A stretch of DNA of 64,000 nucleotides from Acidimicrobiales bacterium (lineage in GTDB: Bacteria > Patescibacteriota > Minisyncoccia > Phycocordibacterales > UBA918), in the NCBI GenBank assembly GCA_047638595.1, contig JBLIMJ010000002.1, positions 640 to 64,639 of the forward strand, in the 5' to 3' direction. Position 1 is the first letter of the stretch, and the number at the start of each line of letters is the position of its first letter. A program made the position numbers and the translations under genes. This document shows positions 1,130-52,751 of this stretch, one piece after another. The notes beneath the pieces are model-generated. The model saw only the letters and a list, made by a program, of their open reading frames with translations. It ran no database searches and was not told the DNA's origin.

Positions 1130-1465
1130 CACCTAAGGTTCTAAAATCAATAGATGATTCTAGATACGAGGTGTGCAAGGAAGTGAGTGCGAGCCGTACT
1201 TGAGATACGGTGTGAGAAAGTGTTTAAACACTTTTGCAAGAGGTTGCCTGGTATTTTCTTTAGAAAATAATGACAACCTGTACAGCTTCTGTAAGAAGAG
1301 TTATTTCGCGAAACGTAACGAAGTTAATGAAGTGATGTTCAGAAATAAAAAGTGACTGTGGATACGAGGCGGGCAAGAAAAAAGGTCCAAGGCGTACTGA
1401 GTGGTACGGCGTCGGACCTTTTTTCGTAGCCTAACGAAGTAGACGTAGTGATTTTTTATTTCTGA
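1130..1465 (-). repeat. about 2.5 tandem copies of a terminator-associated structured module downstream of secY (hairpin-in-hairpin with GATACGAGG..GCAAG..CGTAC-loop-GTACGG core)
   Basis: repeated motifs gatacgagg(t/c)g(t/g)gcaag(g)aa and (g/c)cgtac..gtacgg at 1150-1213 and 1358-1420; repeated aacgaagt..agtgat at 1305-1335 and 1431-1458. Confidence 0.6.
1376..1426 (-). terminator. secY terminator: outer stem AAAAAAGGTCC/GGACCTTTTTT enclosing inner hairpin GGCGTAC-TGAGTG-GTACGGCG
   Basis: read from sequence immediately 3-prime of secY stop. Confidence 0.65.
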
Positions 1466-4371: not shown

Positions 4372-4552
4372 TTAGATACGAGACGAGTGATGAAAATAAT
4401 TTGAGTCGTACACATGTTCCTTACAGGAACTGTACAGGTTGTCGATATTTCTAAAGAAATATCTGGCAACCTCTTGCGAAAGCCTCCCAGGCTTTCTCAC
4501 AACTAAAATTATTTTTTGAAACTCAACGACGTAGATGAAGTGATTTAAAGTA
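4372..4552 (-). repeat. structured intergenic module between rplR and rplF, same family as the secY/rpsG downstream modules
   Basis: contains agatacgag, gagtcgtaca..tgtacagg, and aacgacgtagatgaagtgat motifs shared with 1130-1465. Confidence 0.5.
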
Positions 4553-5087: not shown

Positions 5088-5483
5088 TTACCAGATGATA
5101 AAGAGTTGCTCTCCTCCAACGTTTGCCTTACGTGCATCTTCTCCATTGAGGATACCTACTGGCGTTGAAAGGATCATTTTCCCTTTACCGAACTTAACTG
5201 GATAAATTTCTGTAGCTTTTGTATAGACTCGACGACCTGGCTTTGAAACTCGTTTTACGCCACTGATTCGGTGTGAACCATTTGCGTCATACTGAAGCTT
5301 CATGTCCAAAGACTTAGCTACGCCTTCTCCTTTTGTTTCTGCTGTTACGAGATATCCTTCCTTTACAAGCTTATCTGCAATTGCATGCTTTAGCTTTGAA
5401 TACGGAAGTGATACTTCTTTGTTCCCTACCATTCCAGCGTTTTTCAACTGGATGATGAAATCTCCTACTGTATCGCCTACCAT
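5088..5483 (-). CDS. rpsH: 30S ribosomal protein S8
   Basis: MVGDTVGDFIIQLKNA..; conserved S8 C-terminus GGEQLFIIW. Confidence 0.9.
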   Translation of the reverse strand: MVGDTVGDFIIQLKNAGMVGNKEVSLPYSKLKHAIADKLVKEGYLVTAETKGEGVAKSLDMKLQYDANGSHRISGVKRVSKPGRRVYTKATEIYPVKFGKGKMILSTPVGILNGEDARKANVGGEQLFIIW

Positions 5484-5662
5484 GATGATTTCTTAATTCC
5501 TGGTATATGTCCTTCGTTTGCTTGCTCTCGGAAGCAGATTCGACAAAGGTCGAAGTCCCGCATGTATCCTCGTTTACGACCACACTGGTTGCAACGACGC
5601 ACTACACGAGATTTGAATTTCGGTACGCGTAGCGACCGAATAATTACTGACTTTCGTGCCAT
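5477..5662 (-). CDS. rpsZ: 30S ribosomal protein S14 type Z (zinc-binding)
   Basis: 61 aa, CNQCGRKRGYMRDFDLCRIC Cys4 motif. Confidence 0.9.
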   Translation of the reverse strand: MARKSVIIRSLRVPKFKSRVVRRCNQCGRKRGYMRDFDLCRICFREQANEGHIPGIKKSSW

Positions 5663-6333
5663 ATATTTATATTTTCTTAGGATAGTTTCATGAAGATGTC
5701 ATGACTTTCCTCTAATAATCCGGCTTGCTCACTTTCGCAAGTTCGCCTTCCACGTATACGTACTGCATGGTCACCCATAGCACAAAACACGCCTTCTGTT
5801 GCAAACTTTGAGAATCTTTCGATTATCCCGTTAGTTTGACTACAACAGAGCGGTCCTTCTTCACCTTCCTATTAAAGAATATGTGAGAGATGCGTATATC
5901 GCTTCGTGCACTAATATAGCAAAATACCCCATGAAGTCAATGGTAAAATCACTATTCTTACCCTTTTCAGGCGGTTGCTTTCTAAAGAAAACAACCGCCT
6001 GAAACACCTAGAAAGAGCTAAACACCCAAAATCAGGGCCATTTTGGGTGTTTATCTAAAATTCATATACAAAAACACGACAGCGAAGCTGTCGTGTTTTT
6101 GTATAGAGTTACCTCTTCGAACCGTTACGTTCTGTATCTGAGTTTTCAGTAATGTTTGACTTTCAACGGTACCGTCAAGTTTCTAAGTAAAATTTGTACT
6201 ACGTACAAATTCTACTAAGAACTTCCTGGCCGGACTCGACCGTTCTTTCTCTATGAAGAGAAAGAACATGTCTCCGACTTTTACCACTGAACGAAAGCAA
6301 AACTGTTTGCTTTCTAAAAACCAGAATCAGAAA
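5663..6333. other. 670-bp hairpin-rich noncoding spacer inside the spc cluster (between rplE and rpsZ); no ORF of 60 aa or more
   Basis: hairpins at 5964-6003, 6019-6051, 6070-6101, 6212-6236 and 6275-6375 (12-bp arms TTTACCACTGAA/TTCAGTGGTAAA enclosing the rplE 3-prime end). Confidence 0.6.
6070..6101. terminator. intrinsic terminator-like hairpin ACACGACAGC-GAAG-GCTGTCGTGT flanked by A-run/T-run, in the middle of the spc cluster
   Basis: perfect 10-bp stem; same ACACGACA stem motif as terminator at 1091. Confidence 0.55.
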
Positions 6334-6891
6334 CTATTTAGTTTCAGTTTCTGCTTTTTTCAGTGGTAAACCGATATGTCGTAAAAGCGCTTCAGCCTCC
6401 GCAGGAGTCTTTGCGGTTGTTACGATAGTTATCGCTAGACCAAACACATCTTTAATATCCTCGTTTACTGTTTCTGGGAAGATCGTATGGTCTTTCAGAC
6501 CAAGTGTGATGTTTCCCATTTCATCGATAGCTGTTGCATTTAACCCACGGAAGTCGCGAGTTTGTGGCAAAGCAACGTCGATAAGCTTATCGAGGAATGT
6601 TCGCATACGTTCGCCACGAAGTGTGACTTGGTATCCAACAATATCCCCTTCTCGTAGCTTGAAAGTCGCAATTGACATTCGAGCTGCTCGAGGTGACGCT
6701 TTCTGACCTGTAATCTGAGCAAGTCGATCTTGAATAAGAGCAATCTTATTTTTATCATCAATCTTACCAGTGCCCGTAGAAACGATAACCTTCTCAATAC
6801 GTGGTGCTTGCATTACGTTTGTGTATGCGAATGTATCCTTAAGAGAATCATACACGGCCGCAAGCTTTGTTTGCATATTTAATGTTGCCAT
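6334..6891 (-). CDS. rplE: 50S ribosomal protein L5
   Basis: 185 aa; KVIVSTGTG..; operon context. Confidence 0.9.
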   Translation of the reverse strand: MATLNMQTKLAAVYDSLKDTFAYTNVMQAPRIEKVIVSTGTGKIDDKNKIALIQDRLAQITGQKASPRAARMSIATFKLREGDIVGYQVTLRGERMRTFLDKLIDVALPQTRDFRGLNATAIDEMGNITLGLKDHTIFPETVNEDIKDVFGLAITIVTTAKTPAEAEALLRHIGLPLKKAETETK

Positions 6892-9615: not shown

Positions 9616-9942
9616 TTATGAGGCTTTAGCAGCTTTAGCAGCTGCGATTTCAGCTTCTTTCTTCTTAACATCAAGTTCTTTCTGCATCTTTCCACCATGT
9701 CGGTAGAATTTTTTCGTGGGTGAGAATTCACCTAATCGATGACCTACCATATCTTCAGTTGCAAGAACTTCAATATGATCCTTTCCATTGTGTACTCCAA
9801 ATGTGAAGCCTACCATTTCAGGTGCAATCATCGAATCACGCGCCCATGTCTTGATTACTGCTGTTTCAACGCCTTTTTTACCAGCAATTTTTTTCAACAG
9901 TTTCTCGTCAACATAGGGACCTTTATATAGAGATCGTGACAT
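9616..9942 (-). CDS. rpsS: 30S ribosomal protein S19 (with Lys/Ala-rich C-terminal tail)
   Basis: [22 protein letters not shown].. Confidence 0.9.
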
Positions 9943-10448
9943 TGTATATATCTTAAAGAAGATGTTGCGAATATAGAAAACCGAACGGTTCGCTATATCC
10001 GCATACTTAATAATTATTCTGCCTCCCCTATCACATCGATAGGTTAGTGTAACGGTTTATTGTTAGGGATTGCCCTACCAGAGGCGAATCCAAAACGAGG
10101 TTAGAACGGGGCTATATTACGTGAAATATGTTGTAAAGTCAACACAATAATGGCCCCGGGAGGTCTCCCTGATCCATTGTACCAATTTGGTGTAAAATGC
10201 CGTTATCTCATAAGAAGTTAACAGATACAACTTGTATGAATGACTGATTCGCGGTACAAAGGGGTTAGGAGGTAAGAGATATGCCACAATTGTATGAAGA
10301 GTAGGCGATTTTGCCACCTGAACTACTTAAATCAGCCAAAAATGCGGAGCAGGAATTGAAAAACTTGCTAACTTGCTCTTAAAGGGCGTAACTGGCTTTG
10401 ATTCTGCGATTATAGCGCAATATCAAAGCACACAGGGAGAAACAAACG
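9943..10448. other. 500-bp structured noncoding region where rplB would normally abut rpsS; several nested hairpins
   Basis: hairpins at 9964-10010 (TGCGAATATAG..CTATATCCGCA with inner CGAACGGTTCG), 10030-10047, 10092-10141, 10142-10153. Confidence 0.5.
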
Positions 10449-10652
10449 ATGCCACACATGCTCACTGAACATGACCCGAAGCAAAGCGATGGGCAAGATG
10501 ACGGAAAAGCGATGGTCCTTAAGGTCCCACCGCTTGATTACGTCACAGAAGAAACAGATCCCCTGGGTAAGGCTAAAGGGCCTGCAGCAGAAGCAGTCGA
10601 CGTCGCAACAGAAGCTTTTGGGCCTGGGATTCTGGCTGGACTTAACCCCTAA
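10449..10652 (+). CDS. hypothetical small acidic protein (67 aa) encoded opposite to the ribosomal operon
   Basis: GGGAGA RBS 8 nt upstream; followed by hairpin plus T-run at 10672-10701. Confidence 0.4.
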   Translation: MPHMLTEHDPKQSDGQDDGKAMVLKVPPLDYVTEETDPLGKAKGPAAEAVDVATEAFGPGILAGLNP

Positions 10653-10671
10653 ACACCGCACACACTCAAAC

Positions 10672-10701
10672 TAAAGGCTGGGAAACCCGGCCTTTTCTTT
10701 T
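10672..10701 (+). terminator. hairpin GGCTGGG-AAA-CCCGGCC followed by TTTTCTTTTT
   Basis: read from sequence. Confidence 0.5.
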
Positions 10702-10722
10702 TATGTTATAGTCATTCTACAT

Positions 10723-11043
10723 ATGCCTAAACCCCGAGGAAAAGAACATACGACCCTTACGGAGACTGCTCAGGAGGTGGTTCGCATACTTAAAGGTATC
10801 TCCGGGGTAAAGATGATTGCTCCTGGCGAGATAAAAACTAACAGTCGTAAAGGTACAGGTGCACGCTTTGTGACCGCGGTATACACTACCGCGGGCATGG
10901 AACTCATTATCTCAGGACAAAGCGTACAGAAAGTAGCTATTCATACAGACGGAAATCCTAAAAATATATTTAAGCTACTTAAAGAACACAAGAAGATGAG
11001 AAATTTTGAGTTTAAACAGCGGGAGAGGAAGCCTGGAATTTAA
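10723..11043 (+). CDS. hypothetical protein (106 aa), basic C-terminus
   Basis: ORF; followed by perfect 13-bp-arm palindrome at 11042-11074. Confidence 0.4.
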   Translation: MPKPRGKEHTTLTETAQEVVRILKGISGVKMIAPGEIKTNSRKGTGARFVTAVYTTAGMELIISGQSVQKVAIHTDGNPKNIFKLLKEHKKMRNFEFKQRERKPGI

Positions 11044-11074
11044 ACAATACTACGTTTAACCGTAGTATTGTTTA
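11042..11074. terminator. perfect palindrome AAACAATACTACG-TTTAAAC-CGTAGTATTGTTT
   Basis: read from sequence. Confidence 0.45.
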
Positions 11075-11177
11075 AACTTCGATACAAAAGAATCTAATAT
11101 CTAACGAGCTTAGCTCCTTGCTTTTTTGTTTCTTTTGGGTATATTTCTTTAGGAAATCTTACACAAGGAAAAGAGCA

Positions 11178-11474
11178 ATGGCAAAAATTGGATTTAACGC
11201 TGTAAGTGAAGAACATAGCCACACTATCGATCAAGGCAACAAAATGAGGAAACTTTTTGCTGCCGTTGTACTCGCAGCATTTGATGATGCGATGGCTGAC
11301 GACAGGAAATACGGCAACGGTCCAGGAGTCATCGCACGCTGGGCTCGTTCACACGACGGTCGCGAAGTTCTGTTATGTGCAGGTATTGAACCAAGCGAAC
11401 GCGCTATAAGAGGAATGATGCAGTTTGTTGCTAATGGCGTGCCGACATCAAAAGCTCTGACAAGAAAAGAATAG
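11178..11474 (+). CDS. hypothetical protein (98 aa from MAKIGFNAV; ORF extends to 11118)
   Basis: AGGAAAAGAG RBS before ATG at 11178; convergent with rplB. Confidence 0.45.
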   Translation: MAKIGFNAVSEEHSHTIDQGNKMRKLFAAVVLAAFDDAMADDRKYGNGPGVIARWARSHDGREVLLCAGIEPSERAIRGMMQFVANGVPTSKALTRKE

Positions 11475-11579
11475 GTTGGGGGTATGTGAGTTACATACCC
11501 CTTTTTGTATTGTCTTTTTGACATTTACGGTGTTCGTCGCCAATCACTAAGTATATTTTTTTCGTCTTCGACTCCAAAC

Positions 11580-11734
11580 CTACTAAGTGTTCTCGACCCC
11601 ACCTCAACTGTCGCTAAAGCAACATGTTTCCGGCTTGGCAAGAGATCCGCAACTGCCTCAAGGCAGTTGTTAAAACAAAGAAAAACACTCCCTTTAAAGG
11701 GAGTGTTTTTCTTTGGTTTATCTCTTCCCACCCA
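11580..11734. repeat. tandem copy 1 of a 190-bp unit: degraded rplB 3-prime end (..IIIVSN-LGGKR*) plus three-stem structured bidirectional terminator
   Basis: P1 aagagat/atctctt, P2 caactgcc-tcaa-ggcagttg, P3 aaaacaaagaaaaac[ACTCCC-TTTAAA-GGGAGT]gtttttctttg. Confidence 0.75.
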
Positions 11735-11769
11735 AGTTACTAACTATAATTATTCGCTACCGCTCCAAT

Positions 11770-11925
11770 TCTAGTAAGTACTCGCGACCCCGACTCGTCT
11801 GTTGCTAAAGCAACATGACTCCGTCTTGGGAAGCGGTCACAACTGCCTCAAGGCAGTTGTTAAAACAAAGAAAAACCTCAGGCTTAAGCCTGGGGTTTTT
11901 CTTTGTTTTACCGCTTCCCACCCAT
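11770..11925. repeat. tandem copy 2 of the same unit, overlapping the true rplB stop
   Basis: P1 gaagcggt/accgcttc, identical P2, P3 apical stem CCTCAGGC-TTAA-GCCTGGGG: compensatory changes relative to copy 1. Confidence 0.75.
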
Positions 11926-12771
11926 CAGTGGTCCTGGCTTTCGTCTTGAAACAATCAATTTGTTTGAGTGTTTCTTCGGTGATCGAGTCTTTTGACCCTT
12001 TCCTGTTGGTCGACCTTGCTTTGTGCGAGATCGTTTGTGTCCTCGAGGAGATTTACCTTCACCACCTCCATGTGGGTGGTCAACTGCATTCTTCGCAGTA
12101 CCACGAGTCTTCGGTCGAAGTCCCATGTGTCGTGCGCGTCCTGCTTTACCGATTGATACCAGACGATGTTCTTCGTTTGATACTTCACCGACTGTTGCCC
12201 AACATGTTGAGAGTACCTTACGGATCTCAGTTGATGGCATTTTGAGTGTTGTGTATCCTGCATCGTGAGCGATCACTTCTGCGTGGATACCTGCAGCTCG
12301 AGCAATACGTGCTCCACCTTCAGGCTTCATCTCCACTGCATACACGAATGTACCAAGTGGGATGTTTGCGAGAGGAAGGCGGTTGGCTTTGGTTGGCTTT
12401 GCAGTTTCAGAAACTACAAATGTATCACCTTCCTTCATTCCTTGCTGTGAAAGAATGTACCGCCGTGCGCCGTCTGCATACAGAACTAAAGCAATGAAAC
12501 CAGTTCGGTACGGATCGTACTCGATAGTCTCTACTTTCGCAGGGACATCTTTCTTATCAAACTTAAAATCGATTTGTCGGTATTTTCGTTTATTACCAGC
12601 TCCTCGGTACCAGTTTGTGATACGTCCAGCGCTGTTACGTCCTCCTGTAGACTTCTTACCTTTTGTAAGTGCCTTTAGTGGTTTGCTTGCAGTTGAAGTA
12701 AGATACTTCTTGTACTCAATCACCGAGCCGTCACGACGGCCCGCTGATGTAGGTTTATATTTTTTTACCAT
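11908..12771 (-). CDS. rplB: 50S ribosomal protein L2 (start at MVKKYKPTSAGRR; ORF extends to 12834)
   Basis: KKYKPTSAGRR, VDHPHGGGEG motifs. Confidence 0.93.
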   Translation of the reverse strand: MVKKYKPTSAGRRDGSVIEYKKYLTSTASKPLKALTKGKKSTGGRNSAGRITNWYRGAGNKRKYRQIDFKFDKKDVPAKVETIEYDPYRTGFIALVLYADGARRYILSQQGMKEGDTFVVSETAKPTKANRLPLANIPLGTFVYAVEMKPEGGARIARAAGIHAEVIAHDAGYTTLKMPSTEIRKVLSTCWATVGEVSNEEHRLVSIGKAGRARHMGLRPKTRGTAKNAVDHPHGGGEGKSPRGHKRSRTKQGRPTGKGQKTRSPKKHSNKLIVSRRKPGPLMGGKR

Positions 12772-12840
12772 AATATCTGAGTGGTACCCAATAGTTAATT
12801 TCTGTGCTGTATGCTGCCACTGTATCAGTGACATTCATAC

Positions 12841-13264: not shown

Positions 13265-13957
13265 TTACGCTGTTGCCTTTTCATTCTTCTTAGCAGCTCG
13301 ATTTGCAAGTGCTTCGATAGAAACAGACGGGTCTGCGACAATCACATATTTGTAAGTAAGAAGATCAACAGTGTTGATGTCCTTAGCTTGTACAACTTCG
13401 ATATTACCGAAGTTTTGGAAACTTTTTTCAGTGTTCTCGTCACGCTTTGAAAGTACTACAAGTGCTGTATTCTTTCGCTTTGTTGCGAGTTCTTCAATAC
13501 CAGTTCCCTTTGCAAGTGCTACTACTGACGCTTTTGCTTCTGATGCTTTTGGAGCTTCAAATGCAAAGTTGTCGACGAAAATCATCTCACCATCAGCAAA
13601 TTTCTTTGAGAGTGTGATTGCGAAAGCTTTCGCTCGCAGATTTTTGTTAATTTTCTTTGAGTAGTCTTTTTCACTTCGAGGTCCGAAGGTAACACCACCA
13701 CCTGACCAGATCGGTGAACGTCGAGAACCGTGTCGCGCACGACCTGTTCCCTTTTGCTTCCATGGCTTTGCACCACCTCCGCGTACTTCACTTCGATCCT
13801 TTGTGTGTGCGGTACCTGCGCGTGCGTTGCTTTTCATTGACACAACAACCTCGTGTACAAGGTCAGCGTTCCAGTTTACACCGAATACTGATTCCGGAAG
13901 TGTTACCTTACCGTTTTCCTTTCCATCTTGAGTAAATATTTTTGTATCCATAAGCAT
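13265..13957 (-). CDS. rplD: 50S ribosomal protein L4
   Basis: KPWKQKGTGRARHGS motif. Confidence 0.9.
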   Translation of the reverse strand: MLMDTKIFTQDGKENGKVTLPESVFGVNWNADLVHEVVVSMKSNARAGTAHTKDRSEVRGGGAKPWKQKGTGRARHGSRRSPIWSGGGVTFGPRSEKDYSKKINKNLRAKAFAITLSKKFADGEMIFVDNFAFEAPKASEAKASVVALAKGTGIEELATKRKNTALVVLSKRDENTEKSFQNFGNIEVVQAKDINTVDLLTYKYVIVADPSVSIEALANRAAKKNEKATA

Positions 13958-14577
13958 TACACATTTCGTACCTCTACTAATGTTCCTTTTCGACCTGGTA
14001 CTGCTCCACTTACAAGAAGTAGATTTTCTGCAGCGTTTACTTGTAGTACGCGGAGATTTTTGACCGTTGTCTGGTCAGATCCCATACGTCCTGCCATTCG
14101 TGTTCCTTTAAATACACGTGCTGGCCCTGTAGCTCCAATTGAACCAGGTGCTCGCAACGTGTGTTTCTGTCCGTGAGTAGCTTTATTACCTTTAAAGTTA
14201 TATCGCTTTACTACACCTTGGAATCCTTTCCCTTTCGAGATTGCTGCAACAACAATGCTGTCTCCTGCTTCAAAAGTTGAAGCTTCAACTATTTGACCTT
14301 TTTCAAGACCATCCACTGATTCGTCGTAGTTTACTCGTGTTCGGAATTCCTTCACATGTCGGAAGTTTCCACCAGTGTGTCCACGTTCGGCCTTAGGCAC
14401 AAGACTCTCTCGTCGAGATCCTGTTGCTACCTGTACCGCACTATATCCGTCTTTCTCTTGCGTCTTCACTTGCGTGATGGTCGCTGGAGATACTCGGAGG
14501 ATAGTTGCTGCGTGACAAGTTCCGTCAGCGTCAAACACCTGCGTCATCCCTTCCTTCGTCCCTAAAATAAATTTCAT
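13957..14577 (-). CDS. rplC: 50S ribosomal protein L3
   Basis: MKFILGTKEGMTQVFD..; GKGFQGVVKR. Confidence 0.92.
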   Translation of the reverse strand: MKFILGTKEGMTQVFDADGTCHAATILRVSPATITQVKTQEKDGYSAVQVATGSRRESLVPKAERGHTGGNFRHVKEFRTRVNYDESVDGLEKGQIVEASTFEAGDSIVVAAISKGKGFQGVVKRYNFKGNKATHGQKHTLRAPGSIGATGPARVFKGTRMAGRMGSDQTTVKNLRVLQVNAAENLLLVSGAVPGRKGTLVEVRNV

Positions 14578-14627
14578 TTATTTAATTGAACTAGTCTAAT
14601 AATAGTAGCTTTGTTAGACCAACAAAT

Positions 14628-14697
14628 GAGAAATCGCACCGTTTTGGCGCGAGCAGAATGCTCACACAAAAACGGTGCGATTTCTGCCCATTGGTTC
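14628..14697. promoter_or_regulatory. 70-nt hairpin with perfect 17-bp outer stem (AGAAATCGCACCGTTTT/AAAACGGTGCGATTTCT) and inner hairpin GAGCA-GAA-TGCTC, upstream of rplC
   Basis: read from sequence; architecture like the other hairpin-in-hairpin modules. Confidence 0.5.
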
Positions 14698-15140
14698 TCA
14701 TGTCTGCAAGCAAACAATCATCGAACATAGGTCTTTTAAAGCTGGGAGTAGTATACGTATTTATACAATAATTGCAAGACATTCATGGTTACTTTTATTG
14801 GTACAAATTAACAAGCGCAGCGTTTAAAAAGGCGTGATGATTGCACATTTCGTAGTAATAACAATAGTGACGGTACCGCGACCACTCCAAAAGGTATAAG
14901 TTTTGCTACCTGCATCATTAATGAAGACAGAACGCCTCTTAAAGGTTACGAGGGTCATATCTGCCTGATGGATCATCCAGAACATTCAGAAGATTCCGAA
15001 CATTCAGGGACGTGGTGGTATCTATAAGAGGAGGAAAGGTAAGCATACCCCATCTCGGCGATATCTCTTCAAGATGTTGCGTTTGGCTAAAAGTGTAGTA
15101 CTGTTGCACTAAATTAGTACATCAACCATGGGAGATACCG

Positions 15141-15572
15141 ATGAGCAATTCAGATGGAAAAATAATAGTTGCAACAGCTGATGTTGGTGCTGTTCTTGCT
15201 CTGTTGAAACAGCTTGAGCTAGACACAAGTCTTATATTCACAACATCAGGTGAACCACTTGATGAAGGGGCGTTCGAGCGCCTCGGAGCAGAAGTCCGAG
15301 AAATATTAGCGACGCGTAACCTTCCTGTAGCAGATGTTTTGAGGCTTATGGAAAAGGTTGTGAGTGAAGAACCTCCAGTCCTTGCATTGCTGGATGAACT
15401 GTTCAGACCGCAGAAAGGACTCGAACTATTTGCTCCAATGGAAGCACATATGTTGTCAGACATTCCCATAATTCATCTGATTGAAGAGAAGCCGCACCGG
15501 GCATTCGACAATGGCGCAGAAATTCGTTCTGCAAAAGGAGCACGGAAAAAACAAACTCGTTTCAACACCTAG
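15141..15572 (+). CDS. hypothetical protein (143 aa) inserted between rpsJ and rplC on the opposite strand
   Basis: GGAGA RBS 6 nt before ATG; own terminator at 15627-15660; antisense ORF 15122-15469 is low complexity. Confidence 0.55.
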   Translation: MSNSDGKIIVATADVGAVLALLKQLELDTSLIFTTSGEPLDEGAFERLGAEVREILATRNLPVADVLRLMEKVVSEEPPVLALLDELFRPQKGLELFAPMEAHMLSDIPIIHLIEEKPHRAFDNGAEIRSAKGARKKQTRFNT

Positions 15573-15626
15573 CGCGGAAAGTACCCGAAGGCCACCTTGG
15601 TCTTCGGGAATTTTTATACATATAAC

Positions 15627-15660
15627 AAAAGACCGACAGCTTAGCTGTCGGTCTTTTGTT
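15627..15660 (+). terminator. AAAAGACCGACAGC-TTAG-GCTGTCGGTCTTTTGTT intrinsic terminator
   Basis: perfect 14-bp stem with T-run. Confidence 0.65.
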
Positions 15661-15795
15661 ATCCTCACGGACTATCAAATTTTCTTAAAATTGATGAGCT
15701 GCAAGGCGAGATGAAGTTTTATCGGGAGCGGTACATAGGTACCGTGACTGATAAAACTGAAATCTCAACGCCGCAGATCGCTCATTTAAGGAAAT

Positions 15796-16149
15796 TTAGA
15801 TCATTTTCACGTCGATGTTCACACCTGAGGGTAGTGACAAGTTCGTGAGTGCTTCAACCACTTTCGCATTCGGTTCCATGATGTCGATTACACGTTTGTG
15901 CATTCGCATTTCGAATTGTTCTCGCGCATCCTTGTGGACAAATGACGAACGGTTGACTGTGTATTTCTTGATTTCCGTTGGAAGCGGGATTGGTCCTACC
16001 ACTTTTGCGTCGAAACGCATTGCAGTATCGATAATCTGCTTTACAGATGCATCAAGAATCTTGTGCTCATATGCACGGACACGGATTCGAAGCTTTGGAG
16101 TTGCGTCCTTTGCTTCTTTCTTTGTGTCTTTTTTAGATGTTGTAGCCAT
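15796..16149 (-). CDS. rpsJ: 30S ribosomal protein S10 (ATG at MATTSK; ORF track start is TTG 7 codons upstream)
   Basis: RIRVRAYEHKILD..GPIPLPT.. Confidence 0.9.
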   Translation of the reverse strand: MATTSKKDTKKEAKDATPKLRIRVRAYEHKILDASVKQIIDTAMRFDAKVVGPIPLPTEIKKYTVNRSSFVHKDAREQFEMRMHKRVIDIMEPNAKVVEALTNLSLPSGVNIDVKMI

Positions 16150-16205
16150 AATAATTAATTGCTTTCGCAAACTTGCTAGATTGCTTTATATGCAAGACGT
16201 GTGAG

Positions 16206-18662: not shown

Positions 18663-18693
18663 ACTCCTCTGTTTCTTCGGTCTTTTAATCCTT
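18663..18693 (-). pseudogene. duplicated, frameshifted remnant of the fusA 3-prime end
   Basis: ctcctctgtttcttcggtcttttaatcc versus the true 3-prime end at 18807-18833 (cttctgtttcttcggtcttaatgcc). Confidence 0.6.
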
Positions 18694-18771
18694 ACAGGAT
18701 CTGTTCAGGTTATCGCTATTTTTACTAAGGTAAAAATAGCTGGTAACCTTCATTAAGACCTCACGAAGAAT
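18694..18771. repeat. copy B of the 77-bp element
   Basis: identical to copy A. Confidence 0.8.
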
Positions 18772-43141: not shown

Positions 43142-43645
43142 TTACACGATGGATACGACGTTTGGTTTTACTACTTTAAGATAGTCTTCCGACTTCATCG
43201 CTATGGAACAACTCCGATCACCTGCATTAAATATTATCTCCTGATTTTCTAGAAGAGTTTTATCAACATATACTTCCAAACCAAATATATTTCCAAAAGG
43301 TGGAACACCTCCTGGTTGCACACCATCTGTAACTCTTTCAACTTCCTCAGGTAATGCGAAACGAATATCTGTAGCATGAAGAGCATGTCGTGCCTTTTTT
43401 GGGTCAAACTTTGCATCCCCTGGGACCACAATCTGAACAAATTGTTTTTGTTCTTCTTTGGGAACCTCCTTCTTTTTTATGCGTAAAATGAGTGCTTTGG
43501 CTCCTTGTGAGATAGAGTACTCAGGGCGTAGTGAGGCCGCCTCTTCACTAGTACGCACTGGGTCATGCTCAAAGCACTTATACTCCAGACTTGACTGGGT
43601 AAGTAGATCCTTGATTTGTTGTACTACGGGATGATAGCTAGACAT
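43142..43645 (-). CDS. YbaK/ProX-type aminoacyl-tRNA deacylase (trans-editing domain protein)
   Basis: FEHDPVRTSEEAA..GAKALIL pattern. Confidence 0.65.
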   Translation of the reverse strand: MSSYHPVVQQIKDLLTQSSLEYKCFEHDPVRTSEEAASLRPEYSISQGAKALILRIKKKEVPKEEQKQFVQIVVPGDAKFDPKKARHALHATDIRFALPEEVERVTDGVQPGGVPPFGNIFGLEVYVDKTLLENQEIIFNAGDRSCSIAMKSEDYLKVVKPNVVSIV

Positions 43646-43895
43646 ACAGGTGCTTTTGCTTCTTACAGTAGCTGTTCAGGTTATCAATATTTCTTTTCGG
43701 TACCTCAAGAAATATCTGGTCACCTCTTGTGACAGTCCCCCGGACTGTCTCACCTTGTGCGAGGGAGTATTCGGAACGTAATGCTGCTGCTTCCTCACTG
43801 ATACGGACTGCTTCATGTTCAAAGCATTGATAGTGACAATTCGCACTATCTAAAAGTTGCTTAATTTTCTGTACTGTTTGATTATACTCAGACAT
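43638..43895 (-). pseudogene. truncated/frameshifted tandem paralog of the YbaK-like gene (first 45 aa conserved, then frameshift)
   Basis: MSEYNQTVQKIKQLLDSANCHYQCFEHEAVRISEEAAALRSEYSLAQG versus MSSYHPVVQQIKDLLTQSSLEYKCFEHDPVRTSEEAASLRPEYSISQG; alternative frame gives RYFLRYRKE versus LILRIKKKE. Confidence 0.55.
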
Positions 43896-50996: not shown

Positions 50997-52751
50997 TTAT
51001 TCATTAATGACACGTAAGACTTCCTCGATGGTTGTGATACCCAAAGCTGCTTTATAGATACCATCTTCCAACATCGTCAACATTCCCTCTTTCTTTGCTT
51101 GTTCCTCGATTTGATCAGAGGTTCCTTTTGCCATAACAAGCTCTTTTATAGTTGGGGTAAAGGGAAGTATTTCATGAATACCCACACGCCCTTTATATCC
51201 TTCCTCCGCACCTACACTTTCCCCTGCATGATAAAATGGCACACTGTTCCAAGTCGAACGTGATTTAATAATCTTTTCTTCTTTCAATACATCTAAAATT
51301 TTATCGAGATCTACATGTTTGGATAGTTCAGCTTTTTCATTGGAGGAAAGGGTATAAGGTTCCTTGAGATTATCATTTACCTTTCGTACAAGTCGTTGTC
51401 CTACTGCAACACGAAGTGTGGAAACCATAAGAAATGATTCCACCCCCATATCCACTAAGCGAGCGACTGTTCCTGAAGCGGAGTTCGTATGCACTGTTGC
51501 TAAAACCAAGTGTCCTGTGAGTGCAGCGTTAATCGCAAGACTCGCGGTTTCTTGATCACGAATTTCCCCCACCATAATAATGTCGGGGTCTTGCCGCATC
51601 AGCGATCGTAAACCAGAAGAGAAGGTAAATCCTATTTCAGACTTTACCTGTGTTTGGTTAATTCGCGGCATCTGATACTCAATCGGGTCCTCAATAGTTG
51701 AAATATTTACCTCAGGAGTATTAAGGAGATCAAGAACGGTATACAAAGTAGTAGTCTTACCTGACCCTGTTGGTCCGGTAACCAGAATAATTCCTGTGGT
51801 TTGTCGCATTGTGTCTTGCAGTCGCTCTAGTGTCGAACCGTGAAAACCAACACCTTCAAGTGAGTACCCCGAACGATTCTCTCGCAACAGACGAGTCACA
51901 ATCTTTTCTCCATAGAAAATAGGAAGTACCGAAACTCGGAATGATACTTTCTGACCATCCATTTCCATTTTAAAACGTCCATCTTGCGGAAGACGTTTCT
52001 CGTCAAGCTTCAAGTTTGAAAGTACTTTGATACGTGCAGCAATCGTCGGCGCTGCATGCTTTGGTAATGTCATTGCATCGTGCAAAATACCATCGATACG
52101 ATACCGGACCAGCACTTGTTCCTCCATCGGCTCAATATGGATATCCGATGCTCCTTGAATTATGGCATGTCGTAAAAGTGTATCCACAATACGCACTACA
52201 GGAAGATCTTCTGCCATCTTTTTGAGATCCTCCTCACTGACGTCATCACCTCCTTCATCAGCAATGACCTTCAATGATGAAGACTCTTTGGCAATAATAT
52301 CGCCAAATTCATCTTTGAGTGTTTTCTGGTACTGGAGCAACGCATGACGCATTGAGTCTGTGTCAGTCAGACGAGGAAGAATTTTTAATCCTACTTTTTT
52401 CTTTATAAAATCAATAGCAGGGAGATCGGCAGTATCAAGCATTGCGACCTCAAGAGAAGTCTCGCTTTTCTTAAAAGCAATGATGTTGTGGTTGCGGGCA
52501 ACAGGTTCAGGGATAAGCGAAAGAATATCAAAGTTAATTTTTGTGTCTTTAAGAGACACAAAAGGTATACCAAGTACATACGACTCGACTCGACGTAGGT
52601 CGTCTTCAGTCATGTATCCTCCAGCAATAAGAGCCTCAGCAAGAGTTCGTTTTTCTTCAACCGCAATCTTTGAAGCTGCCACAAGGTCCTTTTTAGGCAC
52701 CAAGCCAGCATCAGTCACGAATCGTTTTAATTGATCATCTTGTATGCGCAT
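50997..52751 (-). CDS. pilB: type IV pilus assembly ATPase PilB/GspE family
   Basis: GPTGSGKTTTLY Walker A, Asp box, His box; N-terminal GSPII domain. Confidence 0.9.
   Translation of the reverse strand: MRIQDDQLKRFVTDAGLVPKKDLVAASKIAVEEKRTLAEALIAGGYMTEDDLRRVESYVLGIPFVSLKDTKINFDILSLIPEPVARNHNIIAFKKSETSLEVAMLDTADLPAIDFIKKKVGLKILPRLTDTDSMRHALLQYQKTLKDEFGDIIAKESSSLKVIADEGGDDVSEEDLKKMAEDLPVVRIVDTLLRHAIIQGASDIHIEPMEEQVLVRYRIDGILHDAMTLPKHAAPTIAARIKVLSNLKLDEKRLPQDGRFKMEMDGQKVSFRVSVLPIFYGEKIVTRLLRENRSGYSLEGVGFHGSTLERLQDTMRQTTGIILVTGPTGSGKTTTLYTVLDLLNTPEVNISTIEDPIEYQMPRINQTQVKSEIGFTFSSGLRSLMRQDPDIIMVGEIRDQETASLAINAALTGHLVLATVHTNSASGTVARLVDMGVESFLMVSTLRVAVGQRLVRKVNDNLKEPYTLSSNEKAELSKHVDLDKILDVLKEEKIIKSRSTWNSVPFYHAGESVGAEEGYKGRVGIHEILPFTPTIKELVMAKGTSDQIEEQAKKEGMLTMLEDGIYKAALGITTIEEVLRVINE

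Follow-up and report, generated by a model that had tools for sequence, protein, structure and literature searches.

A conserved, modular break between rplE and rpsZ in the spc cluster of a Patescibacteria lineage, with a candidate trailer riboregulator

Few gene orders in prokaryotes are as conserved as that of the S10-spc cluster, and the spc cluster is the classical S8-regulated unit. In lambda sib retroregulation, a structure past the terminator forms only in read-through transcripts, provides an RNase III site and destabilizes the upstream message, while the trp and erm attenuators work through alternative 1:2, 2:3 and 3:4 pairings. The S8 site and its operator are defined by the A596-U644 and G597-C643 pairs, A642, a seven-nucleotide asymmetric loop, and the (G-C).U641 and A595.(A-U) triples (PMC4176348), and ribosomal protein (r-protein) leader candidates were surveyed by Eckert and Weinberg (2020; PMC7247131). 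Here, we analyze a 64,000-nt stretch of an Acidimicrobiales bacterium (contig JBLIMJ010000002.1, positions 640-64,639, forward strand; hereafter the window, whose positions are used throughout), in which rplE and rpsZ of the spc cluster are separated by a gap of 671 nt (5663-6333).

The gap is modular and conserved rather than decayed. Its predicted folding energy (-245 kcal/mol, against -162 +/- 4 for shuffled sequences; z -19.6) lies far outside chance, in keeping with a preliminary description of the locus as a hairpin-dense, non-coding spacer. That description also held that the gap has no open reading frame (ORF) of 60 aa or more, and indeed the longest, with a GTG start, has 48 aa. No tRNA or tmRNA was found in the window, and none of the Rfam 15 families matched it at the gathering threshold; a permissive Rfam scan of the gap returned only small RNA (sRNA) and microRNA models shaped like a hairpin and terminator, far under their cut-offs. 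Searching the spacer against loci from relatives with nhmmer and blastn identified two separately conserved stretches, Block A and Block B. We favor, at a probability of roughly 0.55, the reading that the spacer represents a cargo-free, lineage-specific break in the spc cluster built from four modules: Block A, a box with a terminator and hairpins, a promoter, and Block B. The minus strand carries every gene in this part of the window; the following genes, and those for L6, L24 and L14 nearby, were identified with Pfam.

6334-6891, minus strand: rplE (L5)
6158-6321, minus strand: Block A, a 165-nt multi-helix RNA motif (alignment A4, covariation, covariance model R1)
6106-6131, minus strand: 26-nt box, AACGTAACGGTTCGAAGAGGTAACTC, with two mini-hairpins, the second with a GUAA loop, just before the terminator
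6065-6105, minus strand: predicted intrinsic terminator with A-tract, CACGACAGC/GCTGTCGTG stem and U-tract, bidirectional in shape
6019-6053, minus strand: hairpin 2, terminator- or insulator-like (-15 kcal/mol, z -3.8), with compensatory changes in L081 and L085
5964-6004, minus strand: hairpin 3, a 17-bp stem (-28.1 kcal/mol, z -9.5), with compensatory changes in L081 and absent in L085
5913-5940, minus strand: promoter-like site, TTGACT, 16-nt spacer and TG-n-TATATT (extended -10), 10 of 12 matches plus the TG
5663-5906, minus strand: Block B, a structured leader-like stretch of about 245 nt 5' of rpsZ-rpsH-rplF and downstream genes; the conserved stretch begins at about 5926-5906
5477-5662, minus strand: rpsZ (S14, type Z)
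5088-5483, minus strand: rpsH (S8)

For the rplE-rpsZ comparison, 160 loci were fetched and labeled with numbers of the L001 type. The closest RplE relatives (at most 91% identity) are Patescibacteria/Paceibacteria metagenome-assembled genomes. In relatives from the Candidate Phyla Radiation at least 98 nt, and up to more than 4 kb, separate the two genes. In the Desulfosporosinus outgroups the distance is only 27 nt, which agrees with the earlier statement that the genes are normally adjacent and makes the gap in the window unusual. The cargo at the junction (0.1 to more than 4 kb) is unrelated from genome to genome; that of L085, for example, consists of ORFs other than those of L081. The spread of distances and the differing inserts therefore mark the junction as an operon break shared across the lineage and as a hot spot for cargo, of which the window spacer appears to be the minimal, cargo-free form. 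The decayed remnant of an insertion that had been proposed for the gap is at odds with its conserved sequence (both blocks, the box and the promoter are found in relatives), yet the junction is an insertion hot spot in those relatives. Block A stays directly downstream of rplE irrespective of what comes next, and Block B directly upstream of rpsZ; because 1.4-3 kb of genes separate them in the closest relatives, L081 and L085, the two are independent modules. From inspection of its sequence, the L081 cargo at 5599-6254 includes an ORF of 100 aa that resembles an RHH-type antitoxin and overlaps a 123-aa ORF for a PemK/MazF-like toxin.

Block A follows rplE in about 25 Paceibacteria loci with RplE identities of 68-91%. 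An alignment of 22 distinct copies (A4) supports six helices: P1, the closing helix P2, P3, P4/P4b and P5. Their 39 pairs are formed in 93.5% of the aligned cells and 27 show compensatory change; 0 of 500 shuffles reached the observed values, and controls in which the sequences were slid gave 35-52% paired. An independent RNAalifold prediction agrees on most helices (26 of its 30 pairs covary), and the covariance model built from Block A (R1) scores the copy in the window at 167 bits. Invariant nucleotides that are unpaired or otherwise special include a GGA/GA internal loop between P3 and P4 and, in the part of P5 called P5b, an A-U pair, a G-C pair and a bulged A. The stretches UUUUUAG, AAGAG and CGG are conserved and single-stranded. 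In short variants P5 is capped by GC-GUAA-GC over tandem G.A pairs; the GNRA loops read in Block A, like those in Block B, are valid on the gene strand only. No reading frame is open across the copies, whose lengths vary from 146 to 169 nt, and literature searches found no description of the motif. A stem-loop previously placed at 6212-6236 does not fold by itself (z 0.08): it spans the junction of two helices, and the true hairpins are P4b (6267-6242) and that of P5 (6221-6176; -17.7 kcal/mol, z -5.7). Beyond what had been described, the hairpins of 6160-6320 form one motif, which takes in a 12-bp inverted repeat at the end of rplE and recurs after rplB. Its parts, with the partners within rplE, are as follows.

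6359-6370, minus strand: X, TTTACCACTGAA, the rplE codons (G)LPLK, which pairs with X' of Block A to give helix alpha
6328-6353, minus strand: hairpin beta around the rplE stop codon (6336-6334; -8 kcal/mol, z -4.5), with equivalents in relatives
6314-6306/6301-6293, minus strand: P1
6291-6280, minus strand: X', the 5' strand of P2
6278-6276/6235-6233, minus strand: P3
6272-6270/6240-6238, minus strand: P4
6267-6258/6251-6242, minus strand: P4b, a hairpin
6229-6172, minus strand: P5, with an invariant G-C and bulged A6180, an internal loop and a variable tip
6171-6162, minus strand: X'', the 3' strand of P2

The inverted repeat with 12-bp arms noted earlier is real: X (6370-6359) and X' (TTCAGTGGTAAA; 6291-6280) are perfect complements. 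Across 22 loci helix alpha (X:X') is paired in 86% of cells with 46 double-change cells, and its compensatory changes track synonymous and conservative changes of the rplE codons. P2 (X':X'') is paired in 80.5% of cells with 24 double-change cells; for each helix 0 of 500 shuffles did as well. X'' imitates X in each genome, including the A-run that follows it. The two helices share the X' nucleotides and are hence mutually exclusive, and since X' fits X'' better than X in L018, and only X in L134, each appears to be under selection of its own. The stretch from X to X' contains, in order, the stop codon within beta, a U-run (6320-6316) with which the A-run after X is able to pair, and P1. The minimum free energy fold of the 226-nt region of X plus Block A (-88 kcal/mol, z -10.9) uses alpha and forms a long stacked helix.

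Several other accounts of these complementarities were rejected. Long complements of X lie 3' of the stop codon at p<=0.05 in 12 of 24 loci with Block A, against 6 of 92 without it, and a clade-wide rule that the end of the coding sequence pairs with its trailer thus fails, the pairing being confined to loci that bear Block A. A group I intron, with X:X' as P1 and X':X'' as P10, had no Intron_gpI match even at E<=10; we reject it because there is no core, because rplE is complete with its own stop before the element, and because X and X'' use the same X' nucleotides and not adjacent ones. A -1 frameshift at the A-run after X was discarded on inspection: the run is missing from those relatives that carry CAA (Gln) at this place, and the -1 frame continues for only three codons before a stop. 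The complementarity of the 26-nt box to X'' (AACGGT in the window) is lost in L085 and was taken as chance.

Two further copies of Block A lie in tandem after rplB, each with an X' strand that fits a segment of its own upstream.

11908-12834, minus strand: rplB (L2)
11717-11867, minus strand: second copy of Block A, directly after rplB (R1, 75.4 bits, E ~1e-17)
11522-11677, minus strand: third copy of Block A, in tandem with the second (R1, 53.3 bits, E ~1e-10 to 1e-12)

The X' of the second copy (ACCGCTTCCCA) is complementary to the last codons of rplB (TGGGAAGCGGT; 11920-11910), while that of the third (ATCTCTTGCC) fits the X'' of the copy before it (GGGAAGAGAT). Among relatives retrieved by way of their RplB homologs, L161 and L162/L163 also have the motif after rplB, and their partner strands are compensated: where the window has TGGGAAGCGGT/ACCGCTTCCCA, L161 has TGGAAAACGGT/ACCGTTTTCCA. 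The motif thus seems to have been retargeted to another gene end by matching one strand. R1 found no Block A beyond these three copies in the 64 kb, and no extra copy in the first 20 kb with filters off. The rplB copies sit in a second operon break, since rpsS (9616-9942, minus strand) starts only at 9942 and genes on the opposite strand intervene. This rplB|rpsS break (9943-11907) contains, besides the two tandem copies, plus-strand genes for DUF6280 (11118-11474) and DUF2103 (10723-11043), and a promoter-like TTGACT-17-TAATAT at 10142-10114 precedes an rpsS leader of about 170 nt. The break and the DUF2103 gene are conserved in L161-L171; the break itself is more widespread than the motif. 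Tandem copies also occur after rplE, in L096 (3296-3601) and L006 (4554-4880); in L096, P5 of the second copy is cut short, and the X'' of the first acts as the X of the second.

Between the two blocks the gap carries signals that resemble the end and the start of transcription units. The terminator at 6105-6065 has 19 pairs including an A/U extension, seven of them G-C, a 3-nt loop and a UUUUUGUAU tail; its hairpin (6070-6101; -19.1 kcal/mol, z -6.9) had already been picked out as terminator-like, as had the stem-loops at 5964-6003 and 6019-6051, which are hairpins 3 and 2. Its likeness to a terminator near 1091 was also noted correctly, as the one at 1078-1118 has the same AACACGACA stem. 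The sequence of the stem differs yet pairs, at the same position, in six relatives or copies (among them L005, L087, L081 and L085). The 26-nt box occurs once in the window, and we therefore dropped the idea that it is a genome-wide terminator signal. It is near-identical in L005, L087, L081 and L085, where it is present two to three times and flanks the inserted cargo; this suggests that the box region is a site where cargo recombines in. Box and terminator follow each inserted gene of the rplE-rpsZ gap in L085 (4747-4812, 5412-5481 and 6744-6806) and L081 (4802-4876 and 6254-6309), and in L085 about 130 nt, comprising the 3' part of Block A and the box, are directly repeated on either side of the cargo.

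The sigma-70-type site at 5940-5913 is the sole one that the scan reports in the gap. The number of promoter matches is by itself not above chance in the region (1 found, 2.1 expected), and what distinguishes the site is conservation: CATTGACTTCA...TATTTTGCTATATTA and its flanks are invariant in the window, L081, L085 and L083 (four relatives by the count of the analysis). In themselves the terminator and the promoter are ordinary: both fit the consensus for intrinsic terminators and sigma-70 promoters and are conserved. They differ from ordinary ones in lying in the middle of a cluster that is normally a single operon, and the terminator in being preceded by a conserved 26-nt box.

Block B is shared by eight loci. 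It combines a long-range closing helix, an extended hairpin of about 80 nt and hairpins capped by GNRA loops; the invariant core of the extended hairpin is GGACCGC-CUGUUG / CAACAG-AAG-GCG, the invariant stretches shared by the eight loci include CAACAG-AAG-GCGUGUUUU, and the last hairpin sequesters an AAGGGAG-like sequence. RNAalifold predicts 61 pairs, 94.4% paired as against 34-50% in slid controls, with compensatory change in 19 of 61, and two invariant G.U pairs mark the gene strand. Block B has no Rfam match and no conserved ORF. A 26-nt likeness to 52510-52535 lies inside a 584-aa ORF and was taken as chance. With a conserved, covarying structure in the 5' untranslated region (UTR) of an r-protein operon, Block B is most likely, judged by its position, a candidate r-protein autoregulatory leader.

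The transcription boundaries, switch behavior and any regulatory output that we infer for the locus belong to the following model. Block A would be transcribed as the 3' trailer of rplE, where X' could pair with X, enclosing the stop codon and P1, or with X'', closing a three-way junction. The box, the terminator and the two hairpins would end the upstream transcription unit at 6065; the sigma-70-type promoter would then restart transcription in a new unit beginning near 5906, in which Block B precedes rpsZ-rpsH-rplF. Ribosomes at the end of rplE would keep X single-stranded, leaving X' to pair with the decoy X'', whereas in an untranslated message the X:X' duplex would be long, stack on the stop-codon hairpin, and alter what becomes of the message, whether by way of its stability, cleavage by an RNase or binding of a protein. 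The fate of the rplE (and rplB) mRNA would in this way be tied to its own translation, making up for the coupling that the split of the operon abolished. That Block A represents a novel class of cis-acting trailer riboregulator, with a guide strand that reads translation of the ORF end and was retargeted from rplE to rplB, is a tentative proposal to which we give clearly less than even odds.

Among described systems, Block A most resembles, by its predicted structure, the cis-regulatory mRNA elements that act by retroregulation or attenuation, while matching neither an Rfam family, an S8 operator, a group I intron nor a trp-type attenuator. As in lambda sib, X' lies past a stop-codon or terminator hairpin and can, in silico, extend a duplex into the 3' end of the upstream ORF. 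Block A differs from sib in being branched, with three further helices and the decoy X'', and alpha (10-12 bp) is short for RNase III by itself. As in the trp and erm attenuators, three segments have exclusive pairings, the first lies within a translated ORF, and the position of the ribosome could choose the fold; unlike in these attenuators, the ORF is a full-length essential gene instead of a leader peptide, and the element is 3' of the gene. X'' (6171-6162) is also about 55 nt from the terminator and does not overlap its stem (6105-6065), so that there is no 3:4 logic and a classical attenuator was rejected. The earlier suggestion of a processing or attenuation site that uncouples the distal spc genes therefore survives in part: a conserved terminator followed by a sigma-70-type promoter would uncouple them, whereas no sign of classical attenuation is seen, given that the terminator stem lies clear of the alternative helices. 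Like r-protein autoregulatory leaders such as the E. coli spc S8 operator or the leader candidates of Eckert and Weinberg (PMC7247131), Blocks A and B are conserved structured RNAs within r-protein operons, and Block B, in the 5' UTR upstream of rpsZ-rpsH, stands where a leader is expected. Unlike them, Block A lies downstream of the gene with which it pairs, and neither block matches an Rfam leader family.

A number of observations weigh against the model. The pair counts leave the strand of Block A undecided (93.5% paired in sense, 92.5% in antisense), and counts of G.U versus A.C are likewise indecisive. Block A is patchy and, since it is absent from the close relatives L005, L087 and L084, dispensable. 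In the rplB copies beta is a 22-bp hairpin that resembles a strong terminator and stands ahead of the motif; if it terminates efficiently, the motif would rarely be transcribed. The resemblance of X'' to X could reflect duplication or gene conversion in place of selection for pairing. No output domain is evident, and X'' is outside the terminator stem. For Block B, the structure was derived from the same alignment of 7-8 fairly similar sequences in which its covariation was counted, and single-sequence folding gives a z of only -2.3.

Mobility is one rival to the model that we regard as improbable. Block A would then be a scar or passenger, either a small non-autonomous element or a cassette attachment region that targets the 3' ends of r-protein genes, with X and X'' as a target duplication and the 26-nt box as a recombination site admitting cargo. 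X'' is indeed a direct repeat of X, A-run included; tandem copies occur after rplB in the window and in L096 and L006; and Block A is present or absent among close relatives. The cargo hot spot at the rplE-rpsZ junction, the direct repeat on both sides of the inserted genes in L085, and a clearly mobile hairpin module of 80-90 nt within the P5 arm of Block A in L081 and L028 point the same way. Measured against miniature inverted-repeat transposable elements (MITEs) and integrative elements, however, Block A has the X/X'' direct repeat but lacks terminal inverted repeats, and it is not accompanied by a recombinase or transposase gene. Its copies, three in the 64 kb, occur only after rplE and rplB and are always co-oriented (complete genomes of the clade were not searched), and neither the P1 nor the box pattern had a match among the viral contigs of IMG/VR. 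Block A also diverges in step with RplE, its helices kept by compensatory change over 68-91% protein identity, which argues for long vertical inheritance under structural selection, and a target duplication would give no reason for the internal strand X' to follow synonymous changes in X.

A second rival holds that Block A mimics ribosomal RNA (rRNA) and binds an r-protein, S8-like or other, so that the genes upstream would be under feedback (retro)regulation and the coding-sequence pairing would be incidental. In its favor are the invariant GGA/GA loop between P3 and P4 and the P5b features, which persist even in copies such as that of L081, in which the remainder of P5 has been exchanged. 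These features are reminiscent of the S8 site (PMC4176348), with its A596-U644, G597-C643 and A642: columns 107/154 read A-U in 21 of 22 copies, columns 108/153 are G-C in 22 of 22, and column 152 is A in all. S8 regulates the E. coli spc operon at rplE (PMC4176348), and one motif after two different r-protein genes suggests a common trans factor. The likeness, though, spans about five nucleotides and could be chance, and the window itself contains no rRNA of the organism. The seven-nucleotide asymmetric loop, a defining feature of an S8 operator, is replaced by a 1-nt bulge; for want of a counterpart of U641 the (G-C).U triple is missing; columns 106/155, which correspond to A595, form a covarying Watson-Crick pair; and the U598-A640 equivalent becomes C-G in four sequences. 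We thus reject Block A as an S8 operator and consider the broader rRNA-mimic reading unlikely. More doubtful still is the release of Block A with the terminator (about 6321-6065) as a stable, 3'-UTR-derived, trans-acting sRNA. The conserved structured region does end in a strong terminator, contains conserved single-stranded stretches, and has a weak Rfam resemblance solely to hairpin-plus-terminator sRNAs, but the best of these matches, Spy1186876, reaches 31.7 bits where 208 are required, lies on the opposite strand and owes its score to hairpins. Moreover, no conserved promoter or processing motif lies upstream, and X' matches the immediately upstream gene in each copy, pointing to cis action. 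Of the small non-coding RNA suggested in the preliminary description, what stands is the presence of two conserved, covarying structured elements; their placement favors a cis-acting 3' trailer and 5' leader over a free-standing sRNA gene. A hidden small protein gene, or chance hairpin noise in AT-rich DNA, is effectively refuted: several ORFs of 20-48 aa can be drawn but none is conserved among relatives, most of which have stops in all frames and element lengths that differ by non-multiples of three, and the folding z values of -10.9 and -19.6 and the strong covariation speak against noise.

The comparison suggests that a Patescibacteria lineage broke S10-spc at the fixed points rpsJ|rplC, rplB|rpsS and rplE|rpsZ, that each break was rebuilt with conserved RNA structures, terminators and promoters, and that accessory genes land at these points. 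Block A is well supported as a structured RNA, having 27 covarying pairs, and matches no Rfam family; it is unusual in its pairing with the end of a coding sequence and with a decoy. Should it act as a translation-sensing switch, Block A would illustrate how an organism with a reduced genome restores coordinated synthesis of r-proteins after operon fragmentation, and would extend the known r-protein regulatory RNAs by a type located 3' of the gene. Block B is a candidate ribosomal leader in a phylum without one described in Rfam.

At the third break, rpsJ (15796-16170, minus strand) and rplC (13957-14577, minus strand) are separated by about 1.2 kb (14578-15795) with an inserted ORF (15141-15572, plus strand, or 15122-15469, minus strand). 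A long imperfect hairpin (about 15790-15680) trails rpsJ, followed by a terminator at about 15660-15625 whose stem, ACAAAAGACCGACAGC, resembles those at 6105-6065 and 1078-1118. In relatives the rpsJ|rplC gap is also at least 420 nt.

A dispersed hairpin repeat of 80-90 nt (GUGAGAAAG..CUUUCGCAAGAGGUUGCCAGAUAUUUCUUUAGAAAUAUCGACAACC) occurs in the window at 4417-4506 (minus strand), 43626-43753 (minus strand), 1208-1297 (plus strand) and 18686-18750 (minus strand), and in relatives at 4661-4757 of L081 and 1658-1747 of L166 and L169. It fills much of the unusual 216-nt rplF|rplR gap in the window and is absent from that gap in L081. The same repeat lies inside the P5 arm of Block A in L081 and L028, and behaves as a small mobile (MITE-like) module.

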